IMG/VR virus record: IMGVR_UViG_3300025119_000002
Source: a virus
Length of the DNA stretch: 41,669 bases
Direction: 5' to 3' (one strand)
The position numbers and the translations under genes are program-made. Shown piece after piece: positions 29,262 to 30,981 of the stretch; within the stretch, counting starts at the first letter, position 1, and each line of letters opens with the position of its first letter. A model generated the notes under the pieces. That model was not told where the DNA came from and searched no databases. It saw nothing but the letters and a program-made list of their open reading frames with translations.

Positions 29262-29651
29262 TTATCCGCCGCCCGATCCACTCCGCGACTTGCGGGATGC
29301 CGTCATCGCCACCTGTCGTCTTCGGCCAGCAGACCGCATTTCTTTAGCACATCTAGGGGAGCAGCACTTCTGTCTCTTTCTCTTTCGGGGATTTGCAATA
29401 AATGATTGCCCACAGTTCCAACATGTCTTCAAATCAGGGTATTTCTGCTTGTGCAACCTGATGTGTGGACCAGCCCCAAGTACCTGGAGGTTCTCTATCC
29501 GGTTGTCCAGAGGGTTTCCGTTTATGTGATGAACGTGCTCGTATGCGCTGAGCTTCCTGCCAAGATACTGCTCTATAATCCAACGATGGGCACGTACTTT
29601 CCGCCCATCCCGCCAAATTAACCGCGTCCTTGTATGTTTACTACGAGCCAT
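29262..29651 (-). CDS. HNH endonuclease with a C-terminal Cys cluster
   Basis: YEHVHHINGNPLDNRIENLQVLGAGPHIRLH. It overlaps the 3' end of the methyltransferase gene by 11 nt. Confidence 0.85.
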   Translation of the reverse strand: MARSKHTRTRLIWRDGRKVRAHRWIIEQYLGRKLSAYEHVHHINGNPLDNRIENLQVLGAGPHIRLHKQKYPDLKTCWNCGQSFIANPRKRKRQKCCSPRCAKEMRSAGRRRQVAMTASRKSRSGSGGG

Positions 29652-30870
29652 TGGAAACCCTCCACGTTTCCATTATACATTCGCCAATCCATTGCGCGAC
29701 AGCGGGTACCACTGCATTTCCGAGCGCCCGCAGTCGGTGTGTCCGATTGGAAAGCCCATGAGCCATTCCACGAAGACCGGATTCAGCCTCCGCTTGTGAG
29801 ATCGCAGGCCGCAGTTCGGGGTGTTGCACCAGCAGGTCGGGCCATCGTGGGTCTGTTGGACCATGAGCGAAAGCGGGGAGCCGCCCTGTGCGTATGGCCT
29901 CGTTCGGCTCCCGGTATCGTCCGTCGTTGGTGTAGTCCAGAGATGAACCTGCTTCACAAACTCCCCGCCCACTCCTGCCTTGTGTCCCGTCGCATCCACG
30001 CCCATCATCCCGTGTGGTGTTTTCCACCGTTGCGCCTTCTCGTTCAGCGGCCGGGCGTTTCTCTGCAACGTCTCCACGCTCGATTCGCCCGACTTCCAGT
30101 CCCGGCTTGTTGCTGTCGGCCACATCCGCGCCTGACCCGTCAGGCTGTCTTGCGCTCCCGGATGGTTCCCGCAAGATTCGCCGTCCTCCCGGCGGGGCGT
30201 GGCCCAGAATCGTGCCTGCTGGTCCAGCCCCATCTCGTCCTTGCGGTCGAGTCCCCGGCTCCTGAAGCTGTCCGTCGCCGGAGTCTGCCACTGTTCCGCG
30301 TCCCGCTTTAGGTTCCCGTTCTGGGTTGAGGTCGCATCGCTCCCTGGACGCCTCCCGTCGTGGGCATTGGTTGTAGGCCACAATGAACACTCTGGCCCTT
30401 CGATGACTGGCCCCAAAGTCGGACGCTCGAAGCACGAACCATTCCGCATCGTACCCGAGGTTGGCCAAGTCCCCGAGTACTTCGGCCATCGCTCCTCCGT
30501 GGTTGGCGCTAAGCAGCCCTGGGACGTTCTCAACGAGCACGTAGCGGGGTCGTACCATGCGAACGATCCGAGCGAACTCCGGCCAAATCCATCGCTCATC
30601 GGCAGTTCCTTTCCGCTTGCCTGCGACGGAGACTGGCGGACAGGGGAAGCCTCCGCAAATGAGGTCAACCGGCTCAAGTTCGCTTCCGGCGAGTCGCCGA
30701 ATATCCCCGTAGCGGGCCACGGCAGGCCAATGCTTTGTGAGCACGCGATTGCAGAACTCATCGTTTTCCACCTGCCAGCGGCATGTCATTCCGGCCTGTT
30801 CCAGGCCAAGGTCCAAGCCGCCGATCCCTGCGAACAGCGAACCGAAGGTCACAAATGCTTGCGCCTCCAC
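29641..30870 (-). CDS. DNA (cytosine-5) methyltransferase (frame A)
   Basis: Motifs FAGIGG (I), GGFPCPPVS (IV), ENVPGL (VI), RRARVFIVA (VIII) and LGNAVVP (X). About 200 aa of R/G/E/D/P-rich low complexity lies between VIII and X. Confidence 0.9.
   Translation of the reverse strand: MEAQAFVTFGSLFAGIGGLDLGLEQAGMTCRWQVENDEFCNRVLTKHWPAVARYGDIRRLAGSELEPVDLICGGFPCPPVSVAGKRKGTADERWIWPEFARIVRMVRPRYVLVENVPGLLSANHGGAMAEVLGDLANLGYDAEWFVLRASDFGASHRRARVFIVAYNQCPRREASRERCDLNPEREPKAGRGTVADSGDGQLQEPGTRPQGRDGAGPAGTILGHAPPGGRRILREPSGSARQPDGSGADVADSNKPGLEVGRIERGDVAEKRPAAEREGATVENTTRDDGRGCDGTQGRSGRGVCEAGSSLDYTNDGRYREPNEAIRTGRLPAFAHGPTDPRWPDLLVQHPELRPAISQAEAESGLRGMAHGLSNRTHRLRALGNAVVPAVAQWIGECIMETWRVSNGS
29673..30761 (-). 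CDS. 362-aa ORF fully nested in the methyltransferase gene in another frame (frame B): W-x-T-P repeats and an EWLMGFP motif
   Basis: AGGTGG-N6-ATG at 30761. No stop for 1,089 nt. Motifs CSLRTSQ, TWPTSGTMRNG, six WxTP/T repeats and NPVFVEWLMGFPIGHTD. Third-position G+C is higher than in frame A in the central part. Confidence 0.45.
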   Translation of the reverse strand: MSSAIACSQSIGLPWPATGIFGDSPEANLSRLTSFAEASPVRQSPSQASGKELPMSDGFGRSSLGSFAWYDPATCSLRTSQGCLAPTTEERWPKYSGTWPTSGTMRNGSCFERPTLGPVIEGPECSLWPTTNAHDGRRPGSDATSTQNGNLKRDAEQWQTPATDSFRSRGLDRKDEMGLDQQARFWATPRREDGESCGNHPGAQDSLTGQARMWPTATSRDWKSGESSVETLQRNARPLNEKAQRWKTPHGMMGVDATGHKAGVGGEFVKQVHLWTTPTTDDTGSRTRPYAQGGSPLSLMVQQTHDGPTCWCNTPNCGLRSHKRRLNPVFVEWLMGFPIGHTDCGRSEMQWYPLSRNGLANV

Positions 30871-30885
30871 CGTCGCACAAGCGCC

Positions 30886-30981
30886 TCATCCCATCAGCCC
30901 GAGCAGGCCGAAGGCGACGCAGAGAGCGCCCATGCACAGCAGCCACGTGGTCATGCCGTCGATGAATAGGGTTGGGGTCAT
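30886..30981 (-). CDS. 31-aa hydrophobic micro-ORF
   Basis: ATG at 30981 overlaps the upstream stop (ATGA). Translation: MTPTLFIDGMTTWLLCMGALCVAFGLLGLMG. Confidence 0.3.
   Translation of the reverse strand: MTPTLFIDGMTTWLLCMGALCVAFGLLGLMG

Follow-up and report, generated by a model that had tools for sequence, protein, structure and literature searches.

Two reading frames at one methyltransferase gene

The stretch of DNA analysed here, called the window below, is the whole 41,669-nucleotide sequence of IMG/VR virus record IMGVR_UViG_3300025119_000002, a tailed-phage genome with genes for the major head protein, portal, large terminase and exonuclease. The subject is its gene for a C5-cytosine DNA methyltransferase (MTase), which lies on the minus strand and within which an original prediction, made from the letters of the window, had pointed to two frames that stay open for more than 1 kb. 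Both open reading frames (ORFs) are in the ORF list with exactly the coordinates then given, overlapping by 1,089 nucleotides (nt) on the minus strand, and the motif strings quoted at that time, the six W-x-T-P modules and an AGGTGG-N6-ATG are all present in the sequence. The frames are referred to as A and B, and their proposed products as alpha and beta.

29641-30870, minus strand: ORF A, 409 amino acids (aa), GTG start; alpha-like catalytic subunit, 403 aa from its likely start at GTG 30852
29673-30761, minus strand: ORF B, 362 aa, ATG start; +1 relative to A and wholly inside it; beta-like recognition subunit

Probably the locus specifies a heterodimeric orphan phage C5-MTase from these two nested frames. 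The evidence for this comes from the division of the MTase motifs between A and B, from selection acting on each frame, and from the recurrence of the layout in other genomes.

The catalytic frame

29704-29724, minus strand: motif X LGNAVVP, frame A, starting 62 nt beyond the motif IX Asn codon
29842-29871, minus strand: FAHGPTDPRW, frame A, where the conserved C-terminal part of alpha begins; it falls after the B array and ahead of B motif IX
29872-30366, minus strand: alpha linker (A residues 169-333), predicted disordered, read in frame A from the nucleotides of the B module array
30376-30405, minus strand: motif VIII HRRARVFIVA, frame A, its 3' part overlapping the first B module
30514-30531, minus strand: motif VI ENVPGL, frame A, the same nucleotides reading CSLRTSQ in B
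30628-30654, minus strand: motif IV GGFPCPPVS, frame A, with the catalytic Cys77
30817-30834, minus strand: motif I FAGIGG, frame A, binding of S-adenosylmethionine (AdoMet)

Motifs I, IV (with the catalytic Cys), VI and VIII fall within one domain of A, and the database matches are those of an ordinary C5-MTase: PF00145 of Pfam covers A residues 8-169 (E 6.6e-52), TIGR00675 (dcm) scores 151.5 bits against a cutoff of 100.65, and residues 13-172 of M.HhaI align to A residues 8-167 (E 2e-23). A 403-aa product, P0121, is 100% identical to A. Similarity to C5-MTases is limited to residues 8-169 together with motif X, in which the A alignment shows no variation at G384, N385 and P389; a recognition domain and a motif IX, which in a C5-MTase stand on the same chain between motifs VIII and X, are absent from A. 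Motif IV of the window reads PCP in place of the usual PCQ, a variant found also in L008, L041 and L171.

The chain is divided in the same way by an AlphaFold model of A for which 75 homologues were used. Residues 1-170 are modelled with a predicted local distance difference test score (pLDDT) of about 90 and superpose on M.HhaI and M.HaeIII with a root mean square deviation of 1.3-1.5 Å over 162-164 aligned columns, residues 171-335 lie mostly below 50 and have no secondary structure, and residues 376-409 make up a C-terminal helix, that of motif X, at 75-95. The low-complexity R/G/E/D/P-rich character ascribed earlier to the stretch between motifs VIII and X is borne out, since R, G, E, D, P and A account for 67% of residues 169-333 and the segment is predicted to be disordered; the absence of stop codons is the only constraint detected in it. 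Downstream of the linker Trp343 (29842-29844) is conserved in at least 90% of 76 A-type sequences and overlaps the invariant Gly307 of B. The C-terminal 80 aa of A gave only chance matches when compared with the PDB.

The nested frame

29736-29792, minus strand: motif IX RRLNPVFVEWLMGFPIGHT, frame B, near the end of B
29736-29834, minus strand: C-terminal element of B, CWCNTPNCGLRSH followed by motif IX
29835-30383, minus strand: putative recognition array of B (residues 127-309), six W-x-T-P modules of 28-32 aa each
30369-30383, minus strand: LWPTT, the first B module, overlapping the 3' part of A motif VIII
30384-30761, minus strand: B leader (residues 1-126), on the nucleotides of A motifs II-VIII, S/P/T/G-rich
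30438-30470, minus strand: TWPTSGTMRNG, in the frame B leader

The leader of B is written over the catalytic domain of A, so that CSLRTSQGC and TWPTSGTMRNG share their nucleotides with A motif VI and with the A segment LGDLANLGY respectively. The six repeats that had been noticed in B are indeed there, as W-x-T-[PTA] modules at residues 128, 158, 186, 214, 246 and 275, spaced by 28-32 aa. The end of B had been likened to the element that precedes motif X, and RRLNPVFVEWLMGFPIGHT does have the form of a C5-MTase motif IX; it resembles what we take to be the 'RKLHPRECARVMGYPDSY' element of M.HhaI. When B is modelled residues 1-63 are disordered, hairpins appear at 61-80 and 100-120 (pLDDT up to 92), and the C-terminal element including the motif IX helix reaches 79-93.

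Proteins of the B type are very numerous. A word-indexed search found 1,156 homologues at E<=1e-3, nearly all of them 'hypothetical proteins' that carry no Pfam domain, and an exhaustive search with a B profile matched 42,468 cluster representatives at 50% identity. B matches phrog_1008, labelled 'DNA methyltransferase', with an E value of 6.5e-34; Pfam gave a single weak chance match to B and NCBIfam gave none. Scanning viral contigs with the single B protein returned 17 pattern matches and no relatives, whereas the scan based on an alignment did find relatives. In the B alignments A1 and A2 the same module types recur in a number and order that differ between relatives (WQTPATDSFRSRGGDRKDEMGLDQQAR, WPTAR.EDGESCGNHPGA.DSLTGA, W.TPHGM...D..GK.G.GGEF and AHDGRRPGSDATSTQGANLKRDAE), and the count of modules runs from one to many (e.g. 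P0022, P0029), which suggests module shuffling. The long 'MWLxxP...' proteins of the B type (P0004, P0013, P0022, P0029) were considered as a stand-alone family free of any methylase and rejected as such, a full A methylase being present in the −1 frame of their DNA. Just ahead of motif IX, CWCNTPNCGLRSH (29796-29834, minus strand, frame B) has a C-x-C...C...H pattern that also occurs in the sub-clade of P0002, P0013 and P0088 and that could be a metal-binding site; the same nucleotides read LLVQHPELRPAIS in frame A.

The distribution of motifs bears on the suggestion that B is an independent overprinted gene, which loses ground: B carries a canonical motif IX that A lacks, and an unrelated gene is therefore unlikely. 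On this suggestion A would work as a methylase by itself, its recognition region being degenerate or very short, and B would have nothing to do with methylation. A is indeed a complete ORF with the catalytic motifs and is the frame that most annotators call, and B-type ORFs are widely annotated as hypothetical proteins. It is nonetheless a poor prospect, as A has no folded recognition region in addition to having no motif IX, B supplies that motif at the expected place immediately before motif X, the B-type array sits inside a C5-MTase gene in every locus examined by translation, and the PHROGs label of the B family is that of a DNA methyltransferase.

Selection on both frames

Whether a frame is open more often than its overlap with another would allow was judged by permuting synonymous codons in the locally coding frame. 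Across the module region A is stop-free in 54 of 55 viral loci where 4.0 are expected, and from motif IV to past motif VIII B is stop-free in 53 of the 55 where 14 are expected, whereas stops number 3-25 in the third frame of that span. The loci were gathered by similarity to B and the sample is thereby biased toward intact B frames, a bias from which the internal controls (the third frame and the motif I-III region) and the tests on frame A are free. That chance is an unlikely source of the two open frames had been claimed from the window, and this holds for A in the module region, where 4.8 stops are expected, none is seen and 0 of 300 permutations are stop-free. It does not hold for the upstream openness of B in the window taken alone (1.0 stop expected, P(0)=0.30), which is significant only across the family.

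Substitutions show which of the frames is constrained at a given place. In a clade made up of L058/76/83/88 and the pair L065/L066, a sample of few and partly non-independent pairs, substitutions at A codon positions 1, 2 and 3 number 32/17/97 from motif I to IV and 22/10/39 from IV to VIII, the per-site rate falling from 0.139 to 0.054; they number 224/108/65 in the modules, where it is the third position of B that varies most, 15/5/6 in motif IX and 36/20/53 from motif X to the end. The one usable closer relative found in the metagenome scan, L171 (62% identical in B, on a truncated contig), gives 10/5/22, 16/7/35 and 31/14/12 against the window in three successive regions, the last of these being the modules with the peak at the third position of B. 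Before the end of motif VIII the amino-acid identity of this pair is 0.82-0.90 in A and about 0.6 in B, and after motif VIII (A residues 169-236) it is 0.47 in A and 0.76 in B. Across the family the conservation of B is at the level of the synonymous-permutation null over motifs I-III (z about 0), but from motif IV on it is higher than that null, z reaching 15. Both ORFs are maintained by selection, and the constrained frame switches from A to B and back to A.

The G+C content of third codon positions (GC3) in the window is 0.56 in A and 0.76 in B over the module region, 0.53 and 0.78 over motif IX, and 0.67 in either frame over motifs I-VIII; the hand counts made earlier point in the same direction.

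The layout in other genomes

Upwards of 100 independent loci in phages and prophages have motifs I, IV, VI, VIII and X in one frame with W/L-x-T-P modules in the +1 frame. Among these are a Manatee Spring podovirus and, of cultured phages, Synechococcus phage Sc-Yong805-2, Microcystis phage Mae-JY24, Mycobacterium phage ShroomBoi (gp71), Gordonia phage Baddon (gp4), Streptomyces phage Darolandstone (gp38) and Klebsiella phage SAKp11. From IMG/VR 80 loci were fetched with the B alignment and motif IX was found in about 70 of them, in nearly all of which it is +1 with respect to every A-frame motif found (I, IV, VI, VIII, X); the distance from IX to X is always 2 mod 3 and most often 62 nt. A second sample comprised 80 loci from bacterial genomes (Acidobacteriota, Streptomyces, Rhodobacterales, Planctomycetota and others), and in those with the full pattern both frames are open in 26 of 26. 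Among the loci, modules were never found in the catalytic frame. The check proposed at the outset, whether both frames persist in relatives, is thus answered in that both remain open.

Frame B matches that prove to be off-frame translations of methylase genes had been named as grounds for abandoning B. The matches of B to Gordonia and Mycobacterium phage methylases are off-frame (+1) readings, but do not refute the arrangement, for the two that were checked by translation, ShroomBoi and Baddon, have the dual-frame layout themselves.

That the two frames are a sequencing or assembly artefact, or a decaying pseudogene split by two compensating indels, is highly improbable. Indel variants do exist in which the frames are fused differently (P0001, P0077, P0099, P0100), but over 100 independent assemblies, and the genomes of phage isolates from several laboratories, have the same +1 offset, and purifying selection acts on each frame in its own region; the 100% identical product comes from a JGI contig, which may share the source of the window.

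Some loci depart from the common form. In actinobacterial phages and Streptomyces prophages (L002, L006, L072, L097-L135) LLPTP modules are +1 and motifs IX and X both lie in the catalytic frame, where motif IX takes the form 'WGxY...RLNPxFVEWMMGLPxGHVT', and both frames are open; in this variant beta would carry modules only. L012 and L079 are the only viral loci with frame A stops inside the module region (11 of them in L079), and are either decayed copies or a three-piece arrangement. In L009 (2826-4271, P0077) motif I, the module array, IX and X are in one frame and motifs IV-VIII in the −1 frame, a short duplication-like insert placing 'LTDRTKRLSRLGNAVVP' in frame after 'GFPITWTEL'. In P0001, an 89%-identical relative of the window's B, residues 1-302 run into A residues ~351-409, so that an out-of-frame deletion of about 35 nt must have taken motif IX out; this is either a defective allele or an assembly error.

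Junctions between the frames

At the first junction A 'RVFIVA' (family 'RVFIlA') and B 'S(L/S)WPT' (family 'SSSWPT') are both conserved on the same nucleotides, and at the second B 'GWT' and A 'RVDRL' likewise share theirs. In an alignment of 43 diverse loci the B sequence NPxFVEWLMG.P.GWT is nearly invariant and conservation then drops, while A is variable there and rises from RVDRL to LGNAVVP, the conserved stretches of the two frames overlapping by 2-3 codons between motifs IX and X. The constraints moreover interleave as A-B-A-B-A, with W343 of A standing between the B array and B motif IX. Because the conserved residues of A and B share nucleotides at either junction and their constraints alternate, neither one shift point nor two could capture them all.

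This matters for the idea of one canonical MTase made by two recoding events, a +1 shift after motif VIII and a −1 shift after motif IX. Its appeal is that the canonical order of I-VIII, recognition region, IX and X is obtained only by reading A, then B, then A, and that between IX and X it takes no more than 2-3 codons for conservation to pass from B to A. Against it A is kept open by selection for 500-1,000 nt past the supposed shift site, in nearly all the viral loci, and B is open for 280-670 nt upstream of that site. A slippery −1 heptamer lies between IX and X in only 3 of 68 loci, and at the first junction A lacks a stop of the kind that might prompt a +1 shift. Any shift point loses conserved residues at the junctions, A W343 being inside the supposed B stretch, and the point of return varies by lineage, coming before motif IX in the actinobacterial phages. 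The conserved slippery site, and the zero frame ending soon after it, by which programmed frameshifting is recognised are not seen here. The comparison with dnaX, prfB and the phage tail chaperones G/GT is instructive: there too function needs information from two frames of one gene, but those cases have a defined slippery site and an early end to the zero frame, and here both frames are open over the whole overlap. The double frameshift, the third of the explanations offered at first, is thus disfavoured and looks quite unlikely.

Candidate translation starts

30597-30611, minus strand: second candidate start of B, AAGGA, 7 nt, ATG 30599 (B Met55), just before the first predicted structured segment of B
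30759-30773, minus strand: first candidate start of B, AGGTGG (30768-30773), 6 nt, ATG 30761; L171 has an ATG there
30864-30868, minus strand: GGAGG, Shine-Dalgarno-like, 11 nt upstream of GTG 30852

Judged from the sequence, A most likely starts at GTG 30852, because P0121 starts there, the GGAGG lies 11 nt before it, and L171 has an ATG at the same place. For B an ATG 43-46 nt after the 'PC' of motif IV recurs in many loci, and 41 of 97 loci, where 9.4 are expected, have a frame B start codon with a Shine-Dalgarno site ahead of motif VIII, an enrichment that becomes about 1.6-2-fold after conditioning on openness.

A proposed two-polypeptide enzyme

In the scheme that we propose alpha would be translated end to end as a domain with motifs I-VIII, a disordered tether of about 165 residues and a motif X helix that completes the AdoMet-binding domain, the tether being the −1 reading of the frame B coding sequence. 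Beta would be translated independently from an internal start, ATG 30761 or ATG 30599, and would consist of an S/P/T-rich leader, the six-module array in the place of the target-recognition domain, and motif IX, so corresponding to the small DNA-recognition domain. Alpha and beta would then associate non-covalently into an active enzyme, as reported for M.EcoHK31I. The scheme gives a reason for each open frame: alpha must join motifs I-VIII to motif X through the overlap, hence the ban on stops in an otherwise free linker, and beta must start upstream, hence its long open leader. A double frameshift would explain neither of these, and of the original explanations it is the two-polypeptide MTase with its recognition part encoded out of frame that the evidence supports.

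Single-chain C5-MTases offer a part of the comparison. The catalytic large domain of M.HhaI and M.HaeIII is the same as that of A, but each of these is one chain, and the repeat array here has no detectable sequence or fold similarity to their recognition domains. The Bacillus phage C5-MTases SPR, phi3T and rho11s are multispecific orphans, single polypeptides with tandem recognition modules in their variable region. They are like the present family in being phage orphan enzymes with a module array, module number and type varying among relatives here, and differ in being single polypeptides with larger recognition domains.

Closer is M.EcoHK31I, the one bacterial enzyme for which the layout is known from experiment, described as a heterodimeric C5-MTase for YGGCCR from an E. 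coli type II restriction-modification (R-M) system (PMC2836561; PMC3404938, citing Lee, Kam & Shaw 1995, pmid 7870574). According to the same descriptions its alpha has motifs I-VIII and X, its beta has motif IX and is encoded within the alpha gene in another frame, and both are needed (PMC2836561; PMC3404938); the beta is given as 176 aa, with an N-terminal 42 aa that is dispensable in vitro and with alternative internal Met starts (PMC2836561; PMC3404938, citing 16740121). The window has the same alpha ORF with I-VIII and X and the same beta ORF nested in another frame with motif IX, and the dispensable N-terminus with alternative starts there may be compared with the predicted disordered leader and more than one candidate start of B. 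The differences are that in M.EcoHK31I the recognition domain is assigned to alpha, whereas here a conserved module array of about 200 aa is in beta and the 'variable region' of alpha is a disordered read-through; that a 362-aa beta and a 1,089-nt overlap here stand against 176 aa there, the overlap being about twice as long; that the enzyme here is a phage orphan beside an HNH endonuclease gene and not part of an R-M pair; and that the family here is very large.

M.AquI, the precedent named in the original prediction, fits less well. It is described as a two-subunit C5-MTase for CYCGRG (Karreman & de Waard 1990, as described in PMC3404938), with motifs I-VIII in alpha and the distal variable region with IX and X in beta, that is a sequential split (PMC3404938). 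As proposed here for the window, it is a natural C5-MTase made of two polypeptides, with the break in the variable region. In the window motif X is kept on the catalytic chain, B is nested out of frame and the split is not sequential. Full-text literature searches, with motif strings and for overlapping or alternative-frame phage methyltransferases, returned no description of this layout in phage methylases.

Several points weigh against the two-chain scheme. Translation of B from a start of its own, assembly of alpha with beta (by analogy) and the reading of DNA sequence by the module array are steps that we infer, and the likeness to M.EcoHK31I is drawn from the published description of that enzyme. 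B modelled alone is mostly of low confidence (mean pLDDT 61, predicted template modelling score 0.30), and neither the B profile against PDB sequences nor the B model against PDB folds gave a match. There is no B start codon or Shine-Dalgarno site that is universally conserved across loci, and the candidate ATGs of B and the strings resembling Shine-Dalgarno sites are partly forced by conserved residues of frame A. The extra constraint over motifs IV-VIII is seen in one clade and in the family profile, and is not seen between the window and L171, so the role of the B leader is uncertain. The pattern is also broken in a few loci, L012 and L079 by stops in A, and L009, L041 and L061 by a motif I that lies in the B frame.

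A mixed arrangement, in which alpha and beta are accompanied by a minor alpha-beta fusion from +1 slippage or the translation of beta is coupled to that of alpha, has a small chance of being right. It would suit the want of a universal start for B, and in L007, L008, L011 and L035 only a few nucleotides separate the opening of the B ORF from the A start; conserved slippery sites were not found, and nothing else speaks specifically against it. It is a refinement of the two-polypeptide model and not an alternative to it.

Implications for phage methylases

Beyond the window, there is about an even chance that dual coding is obligatory throughout a very large clade of C5-MTases from phages and prophages, with the recognition subunit always +1 inside the catalytic gene, with overlaps of 1-1.5 kb and with an array that constitutes an undescribed modular DNA-recognition domain, M.EcoHK31I being one member whose recognition domain was wrongly assigned to alpha. 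The recognition subunit would on that account be a W/L-x-T-P array plus, in most lineages, motif IX, and over the overlap the catalytic chain would be a disordered tether, held free of stops and under no other constraint; the repeats possibly give multiple specificities. What differs from M.EcoHK31I here is the placing of the whole recognition array in beta, the overlap of more than 1 kb and the very large family.

If this is true, tens of thousands of 'hypothetical proteins' (e.g. phrog_1008) are methylase recognition subunits, and the 'variable region' of annotated methylase ORFs is a read-through tether and not a recognition domain. Predicting what a phage methylase protects against would then need the right frame, and a modular array may explain how specificity changes. 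Such pairs would rank with the longest and the most widely conserved overlaps of same-strand genes in prokaryotic viruses, and the overlap has both a functional rationale and a natural internal control in its A-only, B-only and both-coded regions. Naturally split C5-MTases serve as platforms for targeted methylation, for which the family offers thousands of natural alpha/beta pairs.

Genome annotators keep one ORF of the two, and the choice differs between genomes. For Sc-Yong805-2 (OR075997.1, L003) only B is annotated, as hypothetical, and for ShroomBoi (OR159667.1, L001) only A, as a 252-aa DNA methyltransferase. PHROGs keeps the frames as separate families, phrog_363 and phrog_116 as against phrog_1008.

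Neighbouring features

29262-29651, minus strand: HNH endonuclease ORF, 129 aa, matched by several PHROG HNH families

The HNH ORF comes next after the methylase gene and overlaps it, with an ATG placed 11 nt before the alpha stop. The methylase looks like an orphan because it has no restriction enzyme partner. A megablast of half of the window against a phage collection gave no match. Two long antisense ORFs are open across the methylase gene, at 29634-30311 (plus strand, 225 aa) and 30199-30969 (plus strand, 256 aa), and may be a by-product of the double constraint against stops together with the G+C content.

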